Positions 2,424 through 39,031 are shown, counted from the first letter of the stretch. The stretch: 46,670 nt of DNA from Candidatus Heimdallarchaeota archaeon (GCA_048881705.1 JBHLSH010000021.1:1-46670), one strand, 5' to 3'. Translations and numbers: made by a program. The notes: generated by a model not told the origin, from the sequence alone.

Positions 2424-2532
2424 ATATCAGTTTTTTTTTACATAAATTGCCAGTAAAACAATTAAAATTGTGTTTTACACCTTAATACGGTTGCCCAAGG
2501 GCCTCCTGTCCCCGTAGAAATACGGACAAGTA

Positions 2533-3276
2533 GTGGGTATAATGAAATCATATGAGGTTATATCGCTAGATCTCTTTAGTACTTTGGTTTACGTTGAAAC
2601 TGAAAACTACAACCCTTGGGCTACATTGGAAGATGCGATCGTTCATACTCCCTATTATAAGGAAGACATTCATCCCTACGTTTCTGTTGAAGAGCTATCA
2701 GAAGCATACTATTCCCAAATTCGTCAATTAATGGAAAATAAGGCACGTGAGGTTGAGTTTTCAAATATCGACGTAATATTGGATGTCTTTTCGAGGTATG
2801 GCATCGATTCAGATTTAACACATTTACACCAGATTGCATCAACTATTATTCAAAACTATTTTAACAATATACTTCAATTGATCAAGATCTACCCTGAAGT
2901 CCATGAAACGCTTGAATATTTACGAAATCGAGGTTATACCCTGGTTTTATCTTCAAATCATTCATTTCCTCAAAACGGTTGGAGTGTTTTAGAGAAATAT
3001 GACCTTGGGTCCTATTTCACTCAGATTACATTCTCAGGGCAGATTGGCTGGAGGAAGCCAAGTAAGAAATTCTTTACCAAAGCGTTATCAGGAGTTTCCT
3101 ACACTGATAAACAACGAATTATCCATGTTGGCGATGACCCGCTTTCAGATGTCCGTGGAGCTATGGCTTTTGGTATCCACGCTTTATGGATTCGTTCACC
3201 TGACCAAAAGGAACGAACGATCGAGGGGGTAATAGCGATCATTGAGGAATTTCGGCAGCTCCCTAAATATGTCTGA
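2533..3276 (+). CDS. HAD-superfamily hydrolase
   Basis: Motif I SLDLFSTL, motif II LSSN, motif III WRKP, motif IV HVGDDPLSDVRGA. ATG2542 is an alternative start. Confidence 0.9.
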   Translation: MGIMKSYEVISLDLFSTLVYVETENYNPWATLEDAIVHTPYYKEDIHPYVSVEELSEAYYSQIRQLMENKAREVEFSNIDVILDVFSRYGIDSDLTHLHQIASTIIQNYFNNILQLIKIYPEVHETLEYLRNRGYTLVLSSNHSFPQNGWSVLEKYDLGSYFTQITFSGQIGWRKPSKKFFTKALSGVSYTDKQRIIHVGDDPLSDVRGAMAFGIHALWIRSPDQKERTIEGVIAIIEEFRQLPKYV

Positions 3277-3584
3277 TTCTCCCCAAAATTATGGGGCCTC
3301 CGTTTTAGTCACGGTACGACCTGTTAATGAATTTTACAACTTCCTATGTCCCTTCCAGTAAAAATAACACATCATGGCCAAAAAAATCAGAAAATAAAAC
3401 TCCATATCATTGTGACATCCACGAAAGACCATACATATCAAGCAGCATGACGAATTGGGATTTTTCCATATTTATGGTCGCGGAATTGAATTTGTCCTCT
3501 AGAAATTAGTATAAAAATCCACAGCAACTTACACTTCAGCCTTTTATATATGAAAATGGGTTATGAATCAGGTGTGAAACAGGA

Positions 3585-4016
3585 GTGAAACAGTTTATAG
3601 TTCATCTTGATGAGACTCTTAAAGTAGAGCTGCTCGCTTCTATAGGAAAGTCTTTAGGAGCTGCCAACATTAATATCCTATCGGCTTGTGAGACTACAAC
3701 CTTTGGGGTCTCTACAGCTATCCTATTGGTTAATCCTCACGACGAAAAACGGGCTATTGAGGTTTTACGAGGAAGCAAGATTGCCTTCAGTGCTCAAGAT
3801 GTCCTGATCGCCTCATTCCCGAATAAACCTGGAACACTGGGTAATTTTTCTCAACTCCTAGGAGATCAGGAAATCCAAATCCAATCATTCTATCTACTGC
3901 CTGCATCCTCTAGTACTCGCACAGAATTTGCCATTTCCGTTAAAGAAGCCGATTTTGAAAAAGCCAAATCCTTTCTAGATGCTTCAGGATTCTTAAGAAC
4001 ATTCGACGGAATTTAA
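3585..4016 (+). CDS. Tandem ACT-domain protein
   Basis: Two ACT-like repeats (LGAANINILS...; FPNKPGTLGNFSQLLGDQEIQIQSFY). CAGGA-GTG start context. Confidence 0.8.
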   Translation: MKQFIVHLDETLKVELLASIGKSLGAANINILSACETTTFGVSTAILLVNPHDEKRAIEVLRGSKIAFSAQDVLIASFPNKPGTLGNFSQLLGDQEIQIQSFYLLPASSSTRTEFAISVKEADFEKAKSFLDASGFLRTFDGI

Positions 4017-30192: not shown

Positions 30193-30309
30193 CTTACATC
30201 ATTCCGATAAGAATTCAGCTTTTCGAGTCTAGACAAAAAAAAAGAACTTTGGCCGATGTTATTGAACTTTTCTCAATTGGAACGTAAATTTCGTAGTGGA
30301 TCACTCATA

Positions 30310-30621
30310 CTAGCTTGGTTTCTTCAGTCCATCGATTAAATGACGAGCAGCTAAGATTGGATGTCTTAATGTCATCTTTGGTCCTGAAAAGCGCATGACC
30401 TCCCTAACCAATTCTCTCATCTCTGGTTTATAACAGTGGATTTTACATTTTGCACAGGTTGGTTTATCCATTCCGTAAGGACAGTTCTCTAATCGTACCT
30501 CGGCGTACTGTAACAATTCCGAGCATTGCAGACATAAAGCTGGATCTTTTTGATGTTTTCCTCTACAATAAATATCTATCATTATTCCGATTGTCTTTCG
30601 TTCTCTTTCAAGCCGATTCAA
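30310..30621 (-). CDS. Nitrous-oxide-stimulated promoter (YgbA) family Cys-rich protein
   Basis: RLERERKTI..MI.IYC..KH...LC.QC.ELLQYA..RL..CPYG..KPTCAKCKIHCYKP.MRE..REVMRFSGP.M..RHP.LA..HL.DG. Confidence 0.9.
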   Translation of the reverse strand: MNRLERERKTIGIMIDIYCRGKHQKDPALCLQCSELLQYAEVRLENCPYGMDKPTCAKCKIHCYKPEMRELVREVMRFSGPKMTLRHPILAARHLIDGLKKPS

Positions 30622-30688
30622 CCCAGTTCATTCCTTTGAATGTATATATGGTAATTTCAGAACTTTTTCGTAATAGATTCGGGATACA

Positions 30689-31162
30689 TCAATTGTAACG
30701 CGCTTGCCACTTCCTTAACCGATCCGGAACTAACCGTTGACCGGGAGCATAGAGGTTAGAATTAATGAAGATTAATGGGACTGAGAGTAACAATGGAAGA
30801 CCGTGTAATAAGAGCATAAACCAGTTGGGAATCAATGAAAGGGTGATCAGTGCCAGTATCGATGTACTCAATAAACTCGTGAATCTTAAAAGGAAACCAA
30901 AAAGAAATGCTAATCCTACACTTAACTCTAATATCGCACCGAAGTATCTAACCAGAGTGAACATTTGAGAATTGTCCAAGATGAGGAAGATTAAATCAGT
31001 GAATAGTATGCCATTTTTAGCTGGGAGCTCCAATGTTCTTCGAAAAACTTCATCAAAAATGAGATGATTCATGCCAAGCCAGAGGTAGAGACCGGCTAGC
31101 AAAAATCTTGGTATGAGGATTAACTTGGGAACTTTCGATTTTCCAGAATTGCCGTTCCGCAA
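30689..31162 (-). CDS. DoxX-family membrane protein
   Basis: RFLLAGLYLWLGMNHL...ILELSVGLAFLFGFLLRFTSLL; four TM helices. Confidence 0.75.
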   Translation of the reverse strand: MRNGNSGKSKVPKLILIPRFLLAGLYLWLGMNHLIFDEVFRRTLELPAKNGILFTDLIFLILDNSQMFTLVRYFGAILELSVGLAFLFGFLLRFTSLLSTSILALITLSLIPNWFMLLLHGLPLLLSVPLIFINSNLYAPGQRLVPDRLRKWQARYN

Positions 31163-31442
31163 TTTAAACCCGAAAATAGTTAATCAGAGTCGGATTAATG
31201 TATATGCCTGGTCTTCCGAAAACCTTTTGCCACTTTGGTCTTTTTCATGATAGTTTTCTCCCGAATATTCTTTAATTCAACCCATAGCTATATTTAATGT
31301 ATTCTTGACCGCCTTTCCCTTTTTTAAGTCCGTTAGAATGAGACAAAGTCATTTAGTTCAAAGAAAGCTTTGCATTACGGCAAACGGAAAATATAACTTT
31401 TAACGACGCGAAAAAACGCTCGGGGTTATACCAATCGAATAT

Positions 31443-32384
31443 TTGGTGTCTATTATGAAAAAAATAAAAGTATCAATAAGTCTCTTTTTATTGACTTTAA
31501 GCGTACTCACTGTAGCATACGCAACAGCGGGTCCATCAGGAGTAGGAGATCCAGCTGTCTTGGCAAAGATGCACGGGATCAACGATCAACTCGCGGAGAT
31601 GGGCTACAATATCGCAGTTGAAGAGATTCAGTTTTTCACCATCGGTGGTGGACGTCCTAGCAATCGAATCCATCAACAACCATTTCGATGGGTTGCAAAT
31701 GATCAAGGGCGTTTAGCTCAAGGAAACGATATCACATATTTAGTTGACCAAAGTGATGGCGCAACGTCGAGTCATCTAACATCTGCCCAGACCGAAGCTG
31801 CAATAGATAGGTCAATGACTACCTGGAATGATTTGCTTGCCATGCGAAAAGTCGACCTAGTTAAGCGTCCTGACTCGGGTTTTGATCCTGATATCTTTGA
31901 TTCCTTCTTTGGTTTTGGAGGCTTTGGTTTTCCGTTCTTTGCTGATATTGTTCACGCTGGATGGTTGCCTGCTGCATACTTTGAAGCAGTAGGCGGCCCA
32001 GGTGGAGCCCGTGGAATACTTGCTTTTTCGGTTACTTTTATATGGACGGACGATGTGACCGGGCTTCCTACAGATATCAATGGTGACAACTATCTCGATA
32101 CCGCCCTTAATGAAGTCTATTTCAATGATAATTTCGGGGCTCCATTTGATCCCGCTAATCCTACCTGGGATCGTTCAGGAAATCCCTGGGGAATAGATGT
32201 ACCATTACCTGGAATTGATGTTGAGACCGTAAGCCTACACGAGAGTGGGCATTCCTTGGGTTTAGGTCACTATGGACCGCCACCAGCGGCCGTAATGAAC
32301 CCAGTTTATGCTGGAATTAATCAATACCCTGACCCAATTGATATCGCGGGTATGAATATCGTCTGGGCTTCTTGGCCGAAATAA
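31443..32384 (+). CDS. Secreted metzincin (matrixin/M10-like) zinc metalloprotease
   Basis: Signal peptide MKKIK...AYA (likely start ATG31455), HESGHSLGLGH (HExxHxxGxxH), Met-turn AVMNP and Ca-binding-like DINGDNYLD. Confidence 0.9.
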   Translation: MVSIMKKIKVSISLFLLTLSVLTVAYATAGPSGVGDPAVLAKMHGINDQLAEMGYNIAVEEIQFFTIGGGRPSNRIHQQPFRWVANDQGRLAQGNDITYLVDQSDGATSSHLTSAQTEAAIDRSMTTWNDLLAMRKVDLVKRPDSGFDPDIFDSFFGFGGFGFPFFADIVHAGWLPAAYFEAVGGPGGARGILAFSVTFIWTDDVTGLPTDINGDNYLDTALNEVYFNDNFGAPFDPANPTWDRSGNPWGIDVPLPGIDVETVSLHESGHSLGLGHYGPPPAAVMNPVYAGINQYPDPIDIAGMNIVWASWPK

Positions 32385-32399
32385 ATCAATTTTTTAAAA

Positions 32400-32446
32400 C
32401 TCCAGGATTCCGGTGTAATCTTGGAGGCACCCTCTATCTTTTTTTT
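32400..32446 (+). terminator. Hairpin plus T-tract terminator after the matrixin-like gene
   Basis: ctccaggatt-ccggtgt-aatcttggag (10-bp stem with one G-U pair), then a T8 tract at 32439-32446. Confidence 0.6.
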
Positions 32447-32818
32447 CTCTCTATTTTTTTGTGTAATGTTTTCTAACCCAGTTCTACCAGTGTTGCCGTT
32501 TTGATCCGATCATTATTATGGCAATATCAAAACAATATTCTTGCTCATTTAGAAGCTTTTCTCCTACATGAATCTATATAAGTGTGATCAACGAGTAGCT
32601 GTTGTAAATTACTTTGATTAAAGGCAGTAAATCTTCAATGGGGATCAAATTATCCTATAGGATTTACGAGACAAAATTTAAAAAACAAACAAAGGCCCTT
32701 GCTTCTACTTATATCGATTCTAGAGAATTCATCCGCAAGCTCTCTTGGGGTAGTGCGTATACTGTGAAACTTTACTCCACAGAACCATAAAGGAGAATTC
32801 CTTAGAATTCAAAAAAAA

Positions 32819-34939
32819 GTGTGTGAACTAAAGATGAAGAGTAAAAAAGTGGCTACAGCAATTGTTGGCCTCCTAGTGTTTGGTATGCTTGGAATTGCGC
32901 TGGTAACTCTGGGTAGTACCAGCGAATTAACCAATTATGTACCAATGGACGTCGGGCCAAGATTAAGAGAGATTACGAGTAAAGATGTTGGAGTTGATTT
33001 TATCCAAGGTGAAGCACTTGCCGGAATGGGTGCTGAAGGTGAACTTGATCTTAACATCCTAGATGCGAGATGGTGGATATCCTATAATGATTTTTATGGC
33101 TATGTATATTGGGATGTCTATTATCTGGTGGCTGAGAGCGACCTCACCGAGATTTGGGTACAATCAAACTTAAATTGGAGTGTTGGCGATCCACGACCGA
33201 ATCCAGTTGTTACGCAGGACCAAATCGATTATCTTCTGGACGAATTTGATAGCAACATCTATCCAACTGATACAGATTACTTCGGAAATCCTGATGAACA
33301 CAATGGATCGTTTTCAGTCTTAAGCGCAACCGATTACGAGGATGAAGCTGCACGGAATGTTATCATGGTTTCAAACGTACGAGACGAAAACTTCTATGAC
33401 CCAACCTACCCTTCCTATATCGCAGGATTTTATTGGGGCCTATACGAGTTCTATTTTGACAGGAATATCATAAACATCGATGCATATGATTGGGCGAACA
33501 GGGTCGGCCCAGATGGTTCTCGACCTTTCTTGTATGAAGGTACCATTGCTCATGAATACCAGCACTTAATCCATTCGGATTACGTTTCAGGGGATGCGAC
33601 GTTCATTAACGAAGGATTCTCCGACTTTGCCGAATTACTTTGCGGTTACGGTGCCCCCTGGGGACATATCAATGCGTTTCTTGCTACGCCTGATAATTCG
33701 CTGATATTATGGGGCGATCAAGGGCCACGTAACATCCTGGCGGACTATGGGGCTGCTGCGTTATTTGCTATTTACTTAAATGACCAGTTTGGTGAGGATT
33801 TCATCCCTGATTTCTTACAGGCTGGAATCCCTGGAATTGCGGGTCTTGAAAACGGTTTTCCATCGTGGATGAACTTTGATAGAGTATTTCAAAACTGGCG
33901 AGTTGCCAACCTGATCGACTCGTGGTGGCCGGGCTATGGTGCATTTAACTATCGGAGTATAGATCTACACGGGGATGATGCAGATCCTATGCGAATCTAT
34001 GAGGTTAAAGCAAAGGATACGCCAATGTTAGGAACAGATTTCGGTAACACAATAACTGGTTATGGCAATCCTCCTGCCAATACATGGGTATCCCTGCTCC
34101 GTGGTTATGGAACAGATTACATCAGAATAACGCATATCAAGAAGAATTTTAAAGCCATGTTCAACTTCGATGGCTGGGATGAAGGCAAAGTTTCCATTGA
34201 TTGGTTGAAGGTCGATGAAGGCTTCGATCAAGACGAAGATCTGGAATGGTATTCGACAACAGCGGGCGGTTATCAGGATATCAGTATCGTTGGTGAATTC
34301 ACATTAGATTCTGGTGTGTCACATACTCTCACAATAGATACCTATTATAACATCGAAACAGGATGGGACTATGGATTTGTCCAGGTTTCAACCGACGCTG
34401 GAGCCACATGGACCTCACTCGCAAACGACTATACAGGGACACCACCCGATCCAGATGCCTATGGGCCCATTGTTGCACAACTTCCTGGATTAAGTGGCGT
34501 TACTGATGGGTGGACGACTATGGACTTTGACCTTTCGGATTATACTGGTCAAACCATTATGATTCGCTTCCGTTACATGACTGACGCGTTCGTTCAGCAT
34601 GAAGGCTGGTATTTGGATAACGTTCGAATCGATGGCGTTCTCGTTGACAACGCCGATGATCTTGTGGTCTTCAACCAATACCTCGAACAATACGAAGAGA
34701 ACGATTTCTTTGTTACTTTGGTTAGAGTGAAAAAATACCATGGACATCTATACTATACAGGTGTGAAAACAATCAGATTGGATCCGACAACTGAATCTGC
34801 TACCAAGAACATAGACCACTTCCTCAAAGGGGCTGATAGCGTCATCTTAATTGTAAGTCCCACTACAGGCTATTCGGATTATGAATTTTCCATAGAATAC
34901 AAGCATCGCCACCATCACAAATGGTGGTGGGACGATTAG
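32819..34939 (+). CDS. Secreted zinc metalloprotease, immune-inhibitor-A (M6)/M30-like, with C-terminal beta-sandwich domain
   Basis: Signal/TM segment, AHEYQHLIH and INEGFS zinc motifs, YNIETGWDYGFVQVSTD.G.TW...FRYMTD..V...GWYLDNV InhA-type C-domain. Confidence 0.85.
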   Translation: MCELKMKSKKVATAIVGLLVFGMLGIALVTLGSTSELTNYVPMDVGPRLREITSKDVGVDFIQGEALAGMGAEGELDLNILDARWWISYNDFYGYVYWDVYYLVAESDLTEIWVQSNLNWSVGDPRPNPVVTQDQIDYLLDEFDSNIYPTDTDYFGNPDEHNGSFSVLSATDYEDEAARNVIMVSNVRDENFYDPTYPSYIAGFYWGLYEFYFDRNIINIDAYDWANRVGPDGSRPFLYEGTIAHEYQHLIHSDYVSGDATFINEGFSDFAELLCGYGAPWGHINAFLATPDNSLILWGDQGPRNILADYGAAALFAIYLNDQFGEDFIPDFLQAGIPGIAGLENGFPSWMNFDRVFQNWRVANLIDSWWPGYGAFNYRSIDLHGDDADPMRIYEVKAKDTPMLGTDFGNTITGYGNPPANTWVSLLRGYGTDYIRITHIKKNFKAMFNFDGWDEGKVSIDWLKVDEGFDQDEDLEWYSTTAGGYQDISIVGEFTLDSGVSHTLTIDTYYNIETGWDYGFVQVSTDAGATWTSLANDYTGTPPDPDAYGPIVAQLPGLSGVTDGWTTMDFDLSDYTGQTIMIRFRYMTDAFVQHEGWYLDNVRIDGVLVDNADDLVVFNQYLEQYEENDFFVTLVRVKKYHGHLYYTGVKTIRLDPTTESATKNIDHFLKGADSVILIVSPTTGYSDYEFSIEYKHRHHHKWWWDD

Positions 34940-34987
34940 GTAAAGGAATAATCCCCAGCCTTACCCCTTTTTTTCCCCCTTTTTTTT
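34939..34987 (+). terminator. Pyrimidine-rich terminator after the M6-like gene
   Basis: Weak stem ggtaaagg/ccttacc followed by T7 and T8 tracts. Confidence 0.5.
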
Positions 34988-35503
34988 CCAAGCGAGATTT
35001 TTTTTCCTAGCTTGGCGAGACGCATCCTTGTTTGGCCATCTGACCATTCTCTAACTTCTCAACAGTCTAATAAATCTCCTGGTTGAGTATATCAGCGAAA
35101 CCGAAACAGACCTTATTTACTGAACCATGACCATTAAAAAATCGATATTTTGGATCTGACCTCATGCTGATAAAACTCAGGCAATGTCTTAAAGGGTAAT
35201 ATACCCAAAACCCTATCTCCCAGATTTTACTAGTTCAATGCCTCAAATCATTCATAACCTTGGACTTTCTAATGTTTACGGTCTGTTCTATGATTGACTG
35301 AATCGGGTGCTATAAATGATTTTAAGAATTCAGAGTAACTGTTATCAGGATATCTCACGGGTTAAGGTGGGCGAGCGATCCTGCAATTATTCTTCAAGCA
35401 TCTGCTACCAAATTACCAGGAATGGCAGGAGGAACCATTTGCTCCCTGGGGTTTTGAGGAATCGGTTTTTTTTTCTGTTCTAGGATTCTTCGAATCTAGA
35501 TTA

Positions 35504-36250
35504 TTGGACAATCCAGAATTTTCTCTGAGGAATATTGTCCAATGCGAACCTATTTTTATGGATTCAGGAGCTTTCGCATCGGCATGCCTCGGTTTTACGT
35601 TAGATCCATTCGAAGTTGCAGAAATACATTCACGTCTTAAAGCAGATCTGATAGTGCCTCTAGATGATATTATTTTCTCAGAAGATAACGAGACTATGAT
35701 TAATCAGAAAGTTGCAACGACTATTCTTAACACGGAAATTCTTATTGATTTAAAACCGAAAGAGAGTGAAATCGTTGGTCCCCTTCAGGGGCTCTCCCTA
35801 GACGTTATCGAACGACTTTTTGATGCTTACCGATCGCTTGGAATCAGGAAATTCGCTCTCGGGGGATTAGTTTTTCAATCGAGTCTTAAACAGACTATTG
35901 AACATATTAAAAGGGTTCGCAAGCTTACCAATGGTTTTTTCTTGCATGTTTTTGGACGATTTCTTCATCCTGCATTGTTAAAGCCGATTATGAAAGCCAA
36001 AGCCGATTCGGTCGACGGTTTTGGATATATTCTCAAGTCCGTGAAAGGGATGTATATTGAACAGAAGACAAGAAAATATGTTGCCATAGGAGCCTTAGAA
36101 TCCGTAGAGGAGTGTCCGTGTTCGGTTTGCATAGACAATGATATCTTGGACTTTCAACGAGGGGATGAGGCGGCCCAGTATCTCTTGATCCGACATAACA
36201 TTGCCGCATTAATCGACATCAAGAATCAATCTCTTTCGGAGCTGAACTGA
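35504..36250 (+). CDS. Short tRNA-guanine transglycosylase-like (TGT/DpdA-like) protein lacking PUA domains
   Basis: IFMDSGAF, IVPLD, PLQG, FALGGLV, LHVFG, ADSVDG and the Zn site CPCSVC...RHN. The frame is open back to 35366, so the true start is probably upstream (35378 or 35381). Confidence 0.85.
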   Translation: MDNPEFSLRNIVQCEPIFMDSGAFASACLGFTLDPFEVAEIHSRLKADLIVPLDDIIFSEDNETMINQKVATTILNTEILIDLKPKESEIVGPLQGLSLDVIERLFDAYRSLGIRKFALGGLVFQSSLKQTIEHIKRVRKLTNGFFLHVFGRFLHPALLKPIMKAKADSVDGFGYILKSVKGMYIEQKTRKYVAIGALESVEECPCSVCIDNDILDFQRGDEAAQYLLIRHNIAALIDIKNQSLSELN

Positions 36251-36253
36251 TCC

Positions 36254-37561
36254 ATGGAACAGCTAACGAATTTTCTTGTTTTAAACCGACATCTGACAGC
36301 AGGAGAAGGTTTTTTATTTCGTAAACTTGTACAGCAATGGCCCTATTCTCTCAGAATAAATCGAGTGAAGAAAGAATTGAGGAAAGCGGGGTTTCCCAAG
36401 GCTCAAGAAGTCCTGATAAAGCTTTCTAACAAGAGAATAATACTAGTAGACAAGAGCCAAATTACAATTCATCAGAAGGGGATCCTAAAGTTCTTGGATG
36501 GTCTTCAGGATCAATTATTGAAAATATCGGGAGAGTTTAGCAGACTTAAGCTAAATTTAGAGGAGGAACGGCCGAGACAGAGAAATACATTTGGTCAACA
36601 GATTCTACAGCCCGAAGATGTTCTTCTCTTATTTTCCGGGAACAAACCTGTGCAATCCGAAAAAGTATTCCTAAGTGGAAATGATCTAATTCACACTATG
36701 GAGACAATAGAACGTCTTGCTTATCTGGGCATCCTAAAGATTCAAGAAAAATCCAAGTCTCGTAAAATTTCATTGACCAGTGAGGGAGCCGCCCTAAGAT
36801 ATTTATTTCACCACAAGCATGAACTAAATAAAGTAAATTATGATTATCTAGAAAACGCTTTCCTTAAACCAAATCATGCTACATGGCATAAGTTTTTGGA
36901 AAAATTGAACAATGTTCAGGAGGTACCACTCCTCCCATCTTGGCAAACAAGTTTTTTTGCCATTCTCATCAATCTAAGGATCCTTGTGAAGGAGGAAGGA
37001 AATCTTTCTAGGTTTGTTGTAAAGCCCCCAGAGGGAATACCCCCATTCAATCATGATGAAATTTCATCATTAAAAGAAGAGGTCAGTGGATTCATACCAA
37101 TGATGACAGAAAGGCTCCTTGAAATCCTTATAGAGCTCCGTAACTCAGATAATCCAACATCTATTGGGCAACATTTGGAACTTGGACCATCATCGGTTGG
37201 AGGAAGTTTGAAAATGCTCACGAAGTTCGGCTTGGTGGACAAGTCGGAAAAAAGGGCAATTTACACGCTGACTTCCAAAGGAGAACAGTTGGTGAAATTT
37301 TCGAGGGATATGGAGGAAATGAAAACTCTCCTTGCGAAGGCAATCGAGAAATTCAAAGTCTTTAAAGCGGTGATGAGGTTTGCCGAATCGCAACCAGATA
37401 GTACATTCGGGTTCCTAGACTTGGCGGGTTTTTTTCGGGCTTCAGGGGTAAGAAATTTTAATCCTGCGAAAGCACTCTCAGTAATGCGATTGATGACGCA
37501 GCTCCACATGGGAATAGTGGAGCAGGAGGGCAGTTCTGGACTATATCGCTTAGTCGCATAA
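36254..37561 (+). CDS. Multi-winged-helix DNA-binding protein
   Basis: wHTH-like units: IERLAYLGILKI...ISLTSEG; PTSIGQHLELGPSSVGGSLKMLTKFGLVDK...YTLTSKG; and a terminal ALSVMRLMTQLHMGIVEQEGSSGLYRL. It starts 3 nt after the TGT-like stop. Confidence 0.7.
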   Translation: MEQLTNFLVLNRHLTAGEGFLFRKLVQQWPYSLRINRVKKELRKAGFPKAQEVLIKLSNKRIILVDKSQITIHQKGILKFLDGLQDQLLKISGEFSRLKLNLEEERPRQRNTFGQQILQPEDVLLLFSGNKPVQSEKVFLSGNDLIHTMETIERLAYLGILKIQEKSKSRKISLTSEGAALRYLFHHKHELNKVNYDYLENAFLKPNHATWHKFLEKLNNVQEVPLLPSWQTSFFAILINLRILVKEEGNLSRFVVKPPEGIPPFNHDEISSLKEEVSGFIPMMTERLLEILIELRNSDNPTSIGQHLELGPSSVGGSLKMLTKFGLVDKSEKRAIYTLTSKGEQLVKFSRDMEEMKTLLAKAIEKFKVFKAVMRFAESQPDSTFGFLDLAGFFRASGVRNFNPAKALSVMRLMTQLHMGIVEQEGSSGLYRLVA

Positions 37562-37579
37562 AGGGAGTAACGAACCTGT

Positions 37580-39031
37580 ATGATACGTCTCCAAAAAGTC
37601 CTTAGTTCACGGTCTAGTTTTATTTGCCATTGTGGAAGGATTTTATACGGCAGCTTCGGGTGTGAAGAGCATGGTATGGAGATTCAAATTGATACGACAT
37701 TCATTAAAGCTCGTTTTGAGATTCAATCGAATTCGAGTAAAAATCAAGGTCCAACATTTGATGTGGAGTTGCCACGGAATCTATTTGTCTCCCTCTTCAC
37801 GAGGGAACCCCTTAATCGAAAGGTCTTTGCAGAGAGCAGTTTGGGAAAACTTGGTTACCGAATTACCTTAAATGATCCTATCGAGCCAAAACTAATTCTT
37901 GATGCCTTGAATGAATACCTGGAGATAATAGAAAGCGAAAATTTTCTTTCAAGCTACTTGCTTAAAACCTTCAGGATCAAAATGAAATCTGGGGTAAATA
38001 TTTATTACTTACTTAGCAAAGCTACAGTTTCCTCCTCGAAAAACCTCCTTCTCACCTTCGATATGATTTCCCTCCGAAGATTGAGCTCATACATCATGTG
38101 GCGTATCTTACACTGTGGTGGAACGCCGGAAAACGTCTCTTACTCCCTGAAAAACCATCGAAAAGAAGTCATCACTAAATTTGGCGAATCTACTGTAATC
38201 GATGCAATTAATTGGCCCGTAGAAAAAAAGATACCTTCGTTTATAGTGTGCAAGAGAGTGGAACGCTTTCTTCCTTCGGATTTATTCCATAATGCCAAAC
38301 ATTTTTTGATTAGTGAGCAGTTGACGAGAAAGGCATGGGATGGACTGGAAAGAATAAGTTTTCATTTCGTTGAAGGTTTGACCAGATTTTTCTTTCAAAG
38401 AAAGAGCTGGAATGGGGAATTTCGAAAACTAAAATGCGGCGACGAAACTTTCACGGAATATAAAGGGCGTCAAATACGAGTTCATGCTTCCTTTCTGCAG
38501 ATCGTGGGAAAAAATCAAAACAATTGGCTTTTAAAAAAGCTTAGTTCATTTTTTAGGTCTTCGACTGAGCGTACGACCTCTAATGGTACTCGAAACCTTC
38601 TCCTGATCAGCTGTTCTGCGACCAAAGAGGTTATGGGAAATCTCCTCCCTGCAATCCTAAGGTACTGTGGGAGGGTTCATTTAATGGTTAAGGCTATTCT
38701 TCAAGCAAAATCGTGGCCAAAAAACACAGATATGTTAATTATTAGCGCAAAATATGGGGTACTTTCTCCTTTGGATCCTATTCCGTATTACGAAAGAAGG
38801 TTACTTCCCGAGAACGTTTCTACTCTGAGCAATCTAGTCAAGAGACAGCAGCGAGAGATCTTTCTTCCTCCGTATGAAACCTGTTTCGTCTACCTCTCCC
38901 CTCTTTATTCAATGGCCGCCTCATCTATTATCGATGAGCTATCCACGCTTGGATGTAGAATAATCTTAGGTACGTCACTATCCCAGCTCATTGAGTGGGT
39001 AACACGAACTGATACCATAGAAAAGCTGTAA
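37580..39031 (+). CDS. Protein with N-terminal Zn-ribbon-like motif and C-terminal DUF6884-like domain
   Basis: CHCG-x9-CEEHG near the N-terminus. C-terminal LLLISCSATK...PAILRYCG...MLIISAKYGVL....I.YYERRL...FVYLSPLY. Confidence 0.75.
   Translation: MIRLQKVLSSRSSFICHCGRILYGSFGCEEHGMEIQIDTTFIKARFEIQSNSSKNQGPTFDVELPRNLFVSLFTREPLNRKVFAESSLGKLGYRITLNDPIEPKLILDALNEYLEIIESENFLSSYLLKTFRIKMKSGVNIYYLLSKATVSSSKNLLLTFDMISLRRLSSYIMWRILHCGGTPENVSYSLKNHRKEVITKFGESTVIDAINWPVEKKIPSFIVCKRVERFLPSDLFHNAKHFLISEQLTRKAWDGLERISFHFVEGLTRFFFQRKSWNGEFRKLKCGDETFTEYKGRQIRVHASFLQIVGKNQNNWLLKKLSSFFRSSTERTTSNGTRNLLLISCSATKEVMGNLLPAILRYCGRVHLMVKAILQAKSWPKNTDMLIISAKYGVLSPLDPIPYYERRLLPENVSTLSNLVKRQQREIFLPPYETCFVYLSPLYSMAASSIIDELSTLGCRIILGTSLSQLIEWVTRTDTIEKL

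Follow-up and report, generated by a model that had tools for sequence, protein, structure and literature searches.

A short TGT-superfamily enzyme with a predicted Argonaute-N-lobe-like partner: a candidate base-exchange module of Asgard archaea

In our study, a three-gene unit was found in the DNA of a Thor-type Asgard archaeon. It occupied positions 35378–39031, on the plus strand, of the window (the whole stretch of 46,670 nucleotides analysed). The unit encodes a putative short enzyme of the TGT superfamily, a protein modelled as five winged helices, and a protein in which a predicted Argonaute-N-lobe-like domain precedes a DUF6884-type domain. We tentatively read the three genes as a heteromeric 7-deazaguanine base-exchange module that stands apart from the tRNA archaeosine pathway and has DNA as its target. 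No published description of such a module was found in the literature. The genes had the same orientation, with spacers of 3 nt between gene 1 and gene 2 and 18 nt between gene 2 and gene 3, as in the original prediction made from this DNA, and all three reading frames were intact in the window. An InhA-like protease was encoded upstream, and a YdjM-like gene and purH were encoded downstream (Pfam matches and the annotation of locus L008), in agreement with the flanks first described. The intergenic region 5' of gene 1 (34940–35377, plus strand) is presumed to contain the promoter of the unit.

Gene 1 (35378–36250, plus strand) encodes a putative guanine transglycosylase of about 290 aa. Its frame was open from 35366 (a 294-residue frame, along which the residues are numbered here), and the first ATG/GTG/TTG codon was found only at 35504. 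Because the 45 residues upstream of that codon were conserved in 25/25 aligned homologues, the gene most likely starts at the ATC at 35378 or the CTG at 35381. An SD-like AAGGTG (35364–35369) preceded these codons; both features were kept in G102, an 82%-identical relative, together with the AAGGT(G/A)GG...GCGATCCTGCAA stretch upstream of the gene. The product matched the Pfam TGT family (PF01702) at residues 48–283 with 47.2 bits, above the gathering cut-off of 26.3. The TGT catalytic motifs and the CxCxxC...H zinc site that had been noticed in it were all present, and they were invariant across the family as FMDSGAF, VPLD, DSVDG and CPCSVC...H. The key aspartates Asp66 (DSG), Asp100 (PLD) and Asp217 (DSVDG), the Gln141-Gly142 and Gly166-Gly167 pairs, and the zinc ligands Cys250, Cys252, Cys255 and His277 were likewise invariant (n = 26 sequences). 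The catalytic, base-binding and zinc residues aligned with the active site of the P. horikoshii arcTGT (1iq8), and the catalytic residues remained invariant at 50–60% identity across Thor, Heimdall, Hod, Odin, Borr and Loki-type lineages. No C1, C2 or PUA domain was found in gene 1, whose protein stops about 15 residues past the zinc-site His.

The genome was found to contain its own full-length arcTGT, a protein of 667 aa with TGT, TGT_C2 and PUA domains encoded on contig C1, and also an ArcS-like gene (290 bits). This agrees with the proposal that gene 1 is a spare TGT paralogue devoid of PUA. As judged from its sequence, the gene 1 enzyme is nearer to arcTGT than to DpdA, and the DpdA-like identity first given to it was not upheld. 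The gene 1 family profile scored 54 bits on the arcTGT of the genome and 28 bits on 1iq8, and 12–16 bits on the DpdA proteins of phages 9g and CAjan. At the base-binding position, the family contained Gln141-Gly142 as in the tRNA TGTs, in contrast to His181-Gly182 of the Salmonella DpdA. The arcTGT model TIGR00432 gave 45.2 bits on gene 1, below its cut-off of 350, and matched all 26 family members weakly. The DpdA model NF041059 gave 23.4 bits, below its cut-off of 200 (24 bits for the PADLOC DpdA model), and is a weak test because the proven DpdAs of the two phages score merely 13–16 bits on the same model.

Gene 3 (37580–39031, plus strand) was found to consist of two parts. The N-terminal part (residues 1–330; 37580–38569, plus strand) begins with a CxC...CxxH zinc knuckle at residues 16–31, which was kept in four lineages; the conservation of the knuckle places the start at the ATG at 37580 and makes the gene calls of 451 aa too short. 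In the AF2 model of gene 3 (pLDDT 89), the remainder of this part models as an Argonaute N-L1-L2-like scaffold, a resemblance of middling strength (Z 8–9.6). The best ~45 Foldseek matches in the PDB were all Argonaute/PIWI proteins (best E 3e-6). In VIA-align, residues 93–285 superposed on residues 32–390 of HrAgo1 with Z 8.2 (187 residues, 18% identity) and on MILI with Z 8.9, with 186–187 residues aligned across the Argonaute matches. No sequence similarity was found between the N-terminal part and the Pfam and PADLOC models.

The C-terminal part (residues 336–483; 38585–39031, plus strand) is a domain of about 150 aa with a YaaA-like fold in the model. The DUF6884 motifs have been defined as CxxxK and LSAxxG (PMC11701544); the domain contained CSATK and ISAKYG, the latter in the SAxxG form, and both motifs are carried by P0002 and shared by most of its orthologues. 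The Pfam DUF6884 model (PF21818) gave 20.8 bits on the gene 3 product, below its cut-off of 30; orthologue P0043 carried PF21818, and a family profile search gave >1,000 DUF6884-type matches on profile positions ~330–477. Model residues 329–478 superposed on YaaA (5caj) with Z 8.4–8.5 and an rmsd of 3.4–3.5 Å over 136–138 residues at 19% identity. These motifs and the YaaA-like 'cantaloupe' fold agree with the description of gene 3 as a DUF6884-like protein. DUF6884 is a broad family that includes DpdC and YfjM; DpdC, which converts preQ0-DNA to ADG-DNA, is one of its members (bioRxiv 10.1101/2025.02.24.639861). The earlier statement that no dpdC lies in the window therefore has to be corrected in family terms, since gene 3 ends in a domain of the Pfam family of DpdC. 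The PADLOC DpdC model matched gene 3 with E 0.039 and 11 bits over profile positions 54–114 of 312, and no full-length DpdC match was obtained.

It is the N-terminal domain of gene 3, rather than the winged-helix gene, that constantly partners the TGT. This domain (330 aa) followed the TGT in 13/13 loci with DNA, in three architectures, and stood alone after it in the two-gene loci. The original prediction had asked whether the neighbours co-occur with gene 1: across the Asgard lineages they are conserved together with it, except that the winged-helix gene is missing from the two-gene loci. No DUF6884 was found nearby in three two-gene loci. At locus L010, a separate DUF6884 protein was encoded directly upstream of the TGT, which outscored the other DUF6884-type proteins on the DpdC models (33 bits; ten proteins scanned). 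A complex of the TGT with the N-terminal domain of gene 3 was predicted with an ipSAE of 0.75 (0.78, 0.75 and 0.68 in the separate runs), compared with 0.00 for the best control; at least 57% of the contacts agreed between runs and the pLDDT of the partner was at least 74. In the calibration of the tool, this ipSAE mark was reached by 58/80 solved complexes and 2/110 mismatched pairs, counts that hold roughly here because own alignments were used for the complex prediction. The predicted interface sits on the invariant TGT residues D80, P81, E83 and E86, within a putative docking surface formed by the family-specific LDPYEVAE.

Gene 2 (36254–37561, plus strand) encodes a protein of 435 aa, for which the AF2 model (pLDDT 87) contained five winged helices. 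It was confined to the three-gene form of the module and contained a very conserved C-terminal motif, GFxDLxGxFR...NFNPAK. Foldseek matched it to the winged-helix arrays of RPC82/RPC62 and SelB, and VIA-align gave matches to single winged-helix domains with Z ~10. The last two winged helices (residues 266–435) resembled the N-terminal part of the nickases N.BspD6I (Z 9.6) and SspB (Z 9.3). From these models, the product is probably a nucleic-acid targeting subunit.

In the base-exchange reading, gene 1 would be the catalytic subunit and would act by the double displacement of TGTs, with one Asp as the nucleophile and one as the general acid/base. We infer that guanine is swapped for a 7-deazaguanine base, with salvaged preQ0 as the most likely one. 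QueC was not found in the genome; a YhhQ/Vut_1 transporter was found (127 bits), in keeping with precursor salvage. Devoid of the tRNA-binding C-terminal domains of arcTGT, gene 1 is predicted to dock through LDPYEVAE onto gene 3, at the Argonaute-N-lobe-like domain; this domain may hold the substrate nucleic acid. The fused DUF6884 domain might then act on the inserted base and, by analogy with DpdC, hydrate the nitrile of preQ0 to an amide. The five winged helices of gene 2 would add further, possibly sequence-specific, nucleic-acid binding. With DNA as the substrate, the cell would mark its own chromosome by modification alone, without a linked nuclease. A bolder version, which we consider very unlikely, makes gene 3 a PIWI-less Argonaute-like scaffold with a nucleotide-flipping DUF6884 domain at the place of MID. 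Such a scaffold, bound to a guide or to a specific duplex, would steer the docked TGT to chosen guanines. If true, the closest archaeal relatives of eukaryotes would possess a programmable or sequence-directed base-exchange machine.

A possible but less probable explanation is that the module modifies RNA: with the gene 3 scaffold standing in as a guide for the lost C1/C2/PUA, the short TGT would put preQ0 at a second tRNA site, in rRNA or in another structured RNA, and the DUF6884 domain would finish the base on the RNA. The descent of the gene 1 family from the arcTGT branch and not from DpdA, the Gln-Gly retained from the tRNA TGTs, and the chromosomal housekeeping context devoid of restriction genes all suit this explanation. 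Winged-helix arrays such as SelB, which is among the gene 2 matches, also bind RNA, and Argonaute N-lobes contact RNA duplexes. However, G15 of tRNA is already served by the canonical arcTGT and the ArcS-like gene, the studied DUF6884/YaaA members (DpdC, YaaA and YfjM) have DNA or DNA lesions as substrate or ligand, and the two C-terminal winged helices of gene 2 are similar to the N-terminal part of DNA nickases. The TGT family was found in only 7/301 Asgard species genomes, and pseudogene remnants with stops were found in G217 and G259; such rarity and repeated pseudogenisation are unexpected for a housekeeping RNA modification. We infer that DNA is the more likely substrate.

The named relatives of the TGT family were all Asgard archaea, and the patchiness first asked about is borne out by the same 7/301 species genomes. 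The locus was syntenic between G000 and G102 and has decayed in place in G259, and decay accounts for the absence of the module in relatives. One metagenomic copy contained a TAG at an invariant Trp. Such a distribution suggests a dispensable accessory function. Patchy occurrence and frequent loss, along with homology to two members of the Dpd modification trio (TGT superfamily and DUF6884), would also suit the role in defence or conflict first proposed. In such a role, self DNA would be labelled by base exchange for a restriction component encoded elsewhere, or invading DNA would be attacked by the complex through this exchange, in the manner of Dpd-type restriction-modification. This role is unlikely and found no support, since the module is not accompanied by an effector gene: across 13 loci, no nuclease, helicase or other effector recurred beside it. 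A self/non-self role is likewise not evident, as no nuclease or restriction partner recurs there. The PADLOC matches were all sub-threshold, tblastn against 50,697 phage records gave no match at E ≤ 0.01, and no integrase, transposase or island boundary was found in those flanks whose Pfam families were examined, in keeping with the chromosomal, syntenic context and the decay in place. That the unit is a leftover of an old arcTGT duplication, in decay or without function, is scarcely credible: the remnants of G217 and G259, the metagenomic TAG copy and the Heimdall orthologue P0044, in which both DUF6884 motifs were lost, point that way, but the three frames are intact, the catalytic residues are invariant from Thor to Loki-type lineages and the predicted interface is conserved.

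Among the known systems, the closest sequence relative of gene 1 is arcTGT, for example that of P. horikoshii (1IQ8), with which it has the active-site residues, including Gln-Gly, and the zinc site in common. Gene 1 differs from it by the lack of C1, C2 and PUA, by the new conserved N-terminus of 45 aa, by its presence alongside a genuine arcTGT, and by its ties to partners from outside the tRNA pathway. The DpdA proteins of Enterobacteria phage 9g and Escherichia phage CAjan, of about 315 aa, are likewise short stand-alone TGT-fold enzymes without PUA or DpdB (PMC6884629). Their F(L/M)DSGAF(S/A)A motif is similar in gene 1, whereas the alignment is confined to the DSG region, and the phage genes have preQ0/G+ synthesis genes as neighbours, of which this locus has none.

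The earlier statement that no dpdB lies in the window was confirmed: no match to the DpdB/DndB-type ATPase (PF14072) was found in the window or in the 91%-complete genome. To our knowledge, phage DpdAs have not been reported to require DpdB. The bacterial DpdA-DpdB-DpdC system of Salmonella enterica serovar Montevideo (PMC10164549; 7UI4) also combines a PUA-less TGT-superfamily transglycosylase with a protein of the DUF6884 family; both share the three catalytic Asp and the Gly-rich loop, and both draw on a precursor supplied by genes elsewhere. In contrast, the archaeal module contains neither the ATPase nor the dpdD–K restriction genes, gene 1 falls far below the cut-off of the DpdA model and contains Gln in place of DpdA His181, the DUF6884 domain is fused to a partner and about half the length of DpdC (~310 aa), and the Argonaute-N-lobe-like domain and the five-winged-helix protein are new partners.

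Compared with the Argonaute N-lobe and the APAZ partners of short prokaryotic Argonautes, residues 93–285 of the gene 3 model superpose on N-L1-L2 with PAZ skipped, and its alpha/beta domain appears to occupy the place of MID. Gene 3 differs by the lack of PIWI and PAZ; no MID/PIWI was found in it or its partners, as no residues lie past DUF6884 and the other genes encode the TGT and the winged-helix array. Adding the C-terminal domain lifts the Z of the N-L1-L2 superposition only from 8.9 to 9.6, with an rmsd of ~11 Å, whereas its superposition on YaaA is that of a compact domain.

Three ORFs in one orientation were found at nucleotides 35378–39031 of the window, which is contig C21 of a 91% complete Asgard archaeal assembly of Thor type (G000; 3.96 Mb, 155 contigs). 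Gene 1 (35378–36250) encodes a short TGT of about 290 aa. It is followed, after a 3-nt spacer, by gene 2 (36254–37561), encoding a five-winged-helix protein of 435 aa, and an 18-nt spacer precedes gene 3 (37580–39031), in which an N-terminal domain (N-domain, residues 1–330) is joined to a C-terminal DUF6884 domain. The Pfam TGT model matched gene 1 with 47 bits (cut-off 26.3). The 26 family members were found to contain the invariant Asp residues of FMDSGAF (general acid/base), VPLD (substrate) and DSVDG (nucleophile), together with invariant Gln-Gly, the Gly-Gly loop and the zinc ligands CxCxxC...H; in the alignment, the invariant residues matched the active site of the archaeosine tRNA transglycosylase (arcTGT) of P. 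horikoshii (1iq8). Judged from its sequence, the enzyme should be active.

Gene 1 was placed by model scores and profile comparison, the DpdA, DpdA2 and bacterial TGT references being too few for a tree. The arcTGT model gave 45 bits (cut-off 350), the general tgt model 23 bits (cut-off 47.6) and the DpdA model 23 bits (cut-off 200), a failure which alone carries little weight since the DpdAs of phages 9g and CAjan fail the same model. The rank order of the three models was the same in all 26 members, and gene 1 is outside every curated subfamily scored. The family profile matched the genome's own arcTGT with 54 bits over the entire catalytic domain, and it matched the DpdAs of phages 9g and CAjan, which are proven modifiers of DNA, with 12–16 bits in the DSG motif only. 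Salmonella DpdA contains His181-Gly182, whereas the gene 1 family contains Gln-Gly at that position. On the subfamily scores, the profile comparison and the Gln-Gly, gene 1 looks like the catalytic domain of an arcTGT from which C1, C2 and PUA are missing and to which a new N-terminus has been added. A tblastn search of 50,697 phage records with gene 1 found nothing at E 0.01 or better, and the arcTGT of the same genome retrieved bacterial-type tgt genes, not DpdA. Pfam TGT matched nothing in four phage records (9g, nt-1, CAjan and STSV1), among which the DpdA model matched 9g and CAjan only; in the PDB, the family profile failed to retrieve DpdA 7UI4 with E values of up to 1. One further Asgard locus (L019, G086:C28) contained two convergent TGT-like genes, at 1492–2457 (+, 321 aa) and 2464–3762 (−, 431 aa). 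With 95 bits to the short-TGT profile, the 321 aa protein ranks as a remote sister of that family, and no gene-3-type partner was present within the 3.9 kb examined.

The frame of gene 1 is open from 35366, and ATG, GTG and TTG are absent before 35504. The 45 residues ahead of the first TTG were kept in 25 of 25 aligned homologues (consensus MxxLYFKHLYPSxxEWQExPFAPW), whose Met aligned with an ATC at 35378; the next candidate is a CTG at 35381. An AAGGTG lies 8–11 nt ahead of these candidate starts (stretch 35364–35383), and both it and the ATC-CTG-CAA were retained in an 82%-identical relative (G102, locus L014). A non-canonical start at ATC (or CTG) is therefore the most economical reading, and it would account for the shortening of the protein to 230–248 aa in public gene calls. 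The start of gene 3 at ATG 37580 had been predicted correctly; its first 31 residues, with a CxC...CxxH knuckle, were conserved in four lineages, so that public calls of 451 aa are too short. Compared with G102, about 5 kb of additional sequence (30230–34939) separates the TGT from the ABC-transporter genes in the window, with genes for two secreted-protease-like products, a matrixin-type M10 peptidase (31443–32384) and an InhA-like MAM-domain protein (32819–34939).

A homologue of the first ~330 residues of gene 3 was found after the TGT in all 13 loci with downstream DNA, in three architectures. The TGT, the winged-helix gene and the N-domain with DUF6884 were present in the window and in L008, L034, L012, L020, L021, L022 and L042 (the contig of L022 is cut at the 5' side and the TGT is not on it). 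The TGT was followed by the N-domain alone (about 300–313 aa) in L010, L011, L032 and L033, and by a full gene 3, with no winged-helix gene, in L041. The N-domain-only proteins also formed separate clusters in an exhaustive profile search. In L010 the DUF6884 is a separate gene immediately upstream of the TGT, and its product had the top DpdC-model score (33 bits) of ten DUF6884-type proteins scanned; the flanks fetched for L011, L032 and L033 contained no DUF6884. These architectures define a core of the TGT and the gene 3 N-domain, with the winged-helix protein and DUF6884 as add-ons. Gene 2 was rejected as a conserved partner because it is missing from the two-gene loci. The YdjM-like gene was also rejected as a member of the module, since the YdjM-purH pair occurs without the module in the genomes G211 and G139. 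A TauE/SafE-family membrane protein gene adjoined the module in three loci outside the Thor lineage (L011, L020 and the contig of protein P0024). A YdjM-family gene was found less than 2 kb away in L011 and on the P0024 contig, both of which have the two-gene form, and immediately downstream in the Thor loci. These neighbours may stem from lineage synteny or from a weak link in function.

The complex of the TGT with gene 3 residues 1–332, each supplied with its alignment, was predicted with an ipSAE of 0.75 (runs 0.78, 0.75 and 0.68), the best of three controls reaching 0.00. When the tool was calibrated, 58 of 80 solved complexes attained this mark, as did 2 of 110 mismatched pairs; the counts apply here only approximately because our own alignments were used. 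The runs shared at least 57% of contacts and the pLDDT of the partner was at least 74. The predicted interface contained residues 42–47, 75–90 and 129 of the TGT, including the invariant family-specific LDPYEVAE motif (D80, P81, E83, E86), and residues 135–137, 175–194 and 239–243 of gene 3, which form the conserved YIxWR...SL block. The prediction supports binding of the gene 3 N-domain by the TGT.

The AF2 model of gene 3 had a mean pLDDT of 89. In a Foldseek search of the PDB, the top ~45 places were all Argonaute/PIWI proteins, led by Hili (E 3e-6, probability 1.0) and including HrAgo1 from Asgard archaea. VIA-align placed residues 93–285 on N-L1-L2 with PAZ skipped, both in HrAgo1 (32–390; Z 8.2, 187 aligned, 18% identity) and in MILI (227–560; Z 8.9, 186 aligned). 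Gene 3 lacks PIWI and PAZ, and the N-part has no sequence similarity to Argonautes. As the Z values are middling and the model is a predicted one, we describe the N-part cautiously as Argonaute-N-lobe-like and not as a member of the Argonaute family. No usable match to it was found in the ESM Atlas, where the model itself was poor.

Residues 329–478 of gene 3 were superimposed on E. coli YaaA (5caj) with Z 8.4–8.5, an rmsd of 3.4–3.5 Å, 136–138 aligned residues and 19% identity; the second-best fold match was AF0587 (2Q07), on which nothing useful was found in the literature. The domain contained CSATK and ISAKYG, corresponding to the two DUF6884 motifs CxxxK and LSAxxG described in Pfam (PMC11701544). 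DpdC has been assigned to the same family (bioRxiv 10.1101/2025.02.24.639861), so the earlier statement that the window has no dpdC was wrong at the family level. DpdC converts preQ0-DNA to ADG-DNA and needs neither DpdA nor DpdB. The DpdC model matched the domain with E 0.039 and partial coverage, and the domain is not a DpdC orthologue; phmmer found no match to it among PDB sequences.

The AF2 model of gene 2 (pLDDT 87) consisted of five winged helices linked by a long helix. Foldseek matched it to the winged-helix arrays of Pol III RPC82/RPC62 and SelB, and VIA-align to single MarR- or Z-alpha-type domains (Z ~10). VIA-align also matched residues 266–435 to the N-terminal parts of two nickases, with 154 residues aligned to N.BspD6I (Z 9.6) and 166 to SspB (Z 9.3). 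These matches hint that gene 2 may recognise DNA. In the metagenomic locus L021 (218–2395), the TGT starts with GTG and continues in frame into gene 2, with no stop. This apparent fusion (P0050) was not accepted as Rosetta-stone evidence, since a TAG replaces an invariant Trp of the TGT in that copy. The TAG could be explained by decay to a pseudogene, by an error of sequencing or by recoding of the stop codon.

Gene 1 had been taken as a spare TGT, and the genome bears this out: a canonical arcTGT (667 aa; TGT + TGT_C2 + PUA) was found on contig C1, with an ArcS-like gene (290 bits) 27 kb away, so gene 1 is not the sole arcTGT. QueC and members of the DndB/DpdB family were not found in this 91% complete genome, and a weak QueC match on contig C42 was rejected as a ThiI-type PP-loop protein. 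A YhhQ/Vut_1 transporter (127 bits) was present. This is the family of the preQ0 importer, which makes precursor salvage plausible. Taken over contigs C1, C2 and C42, the arcTGT, the ArcS-like gene and the transporter, with no QueC found, suggest that 7-deazaguanine is salvaged and not synthesised. Two other carriers, G102 and G041 (of which G041 is 100% complete), likewise gave no QueC, and it was present in G190, G262 and G086. Among the carriers, the DUF6884-fused form (G000, G102, G041) was found without QueC and the two-gene form (G190, G262) with it, a pattern in which no more than about three lineages are independent. Elsewhere in the genome, at G000:C11:68517–68918 (+) (L005), a second DUF6884 gene stands alone; its ORF of 170 aa scored 42 bits, which exceeds the Pfam cut-off.

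Among 5.8 billion proteins, 38 homologues of gene 1 were found, and every named one was from Asgard archaea (Thor, Hod, Heimdall, Odin, Borr and Promethearchaeota). The distribution was patchy across related genomes, with matches at E 1e-20 or better in only 7 of 301 Asgard species genomes. In that search, the 20 other genomes of the same genus yielded an intact gene in G102 and, in G217, a remnant interrupted by two TAA stops. The complete genome G259, also of this genus, lacked both the TGT and gene 2 and retained in the same place, beside the YdjM-like gene, a decayed gene 3 (L028, G259:C1 8313–9151, −) disrupted by three stops and a frameshift. For the DUF6884 part, an intact ORF of 161 aa remains, as if kept for a function of its own. 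The remnants in place and the synteny of the locus between G000 and G102 indicate that the patchiness is largely due to loss in place and not to recent transfer.

We consider it highly probable that the module comprises an active guanine/7-deazaguanine exchange enzyme that forms a heteromer with a nucleic-acid-binding partner of a new kind and acts on a substrate other than tRNA G15. As that substrate we tentatively prefer DNA to RNA, because the studied DUF6884/YaaA members (DpdC, YaaA and YfjM) are linked to DNA, the genome already has a complete tRNA pathway, the module can be dispensed with and is frequently lost, and a winged-helix pair of gene 2 is similar to DNA nickases in their N-terminal part. 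An RNA substrate appears rather unlikely, although the arcTGT ancestry of gene 1 and its Gln-Gly speak for it and neither accessory fold is specific to DNA. The role in defence put forward in the original prediction is improbable, since no recurrent effector was found beside the module. If DNA is the substrate, the chromosomes of some Asgard archaea would bear a base modification not described before, built on a precursor obtained by salvage, with consequences for the sequencing of carrier genomes and for the reading of their chromatin and virus interactions; action on RNA would mean a new modification site and a new mode of substrate recognition.

To our knowledge, TGT enzymes are the sole route of 7-deazaguanines into nucleic acids. 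Their substrates are tRNA for the bacterial TGT, arcTGT and the eukaryotic QTRT pair, and DNA for the bacterial and viral DpdA. We found no paper joining Asgard archaea to DpdA or to 7-deazaguanines in DNA. The module would be a further branch of TGT, derived from arcTGT within the Asgard archaea, in which the tRNA-binding domains were traded for a partner with an Argonaute-like front half, and it has a family of finishing enzymes, DUF6884, in common with the bacterial Dpd system.
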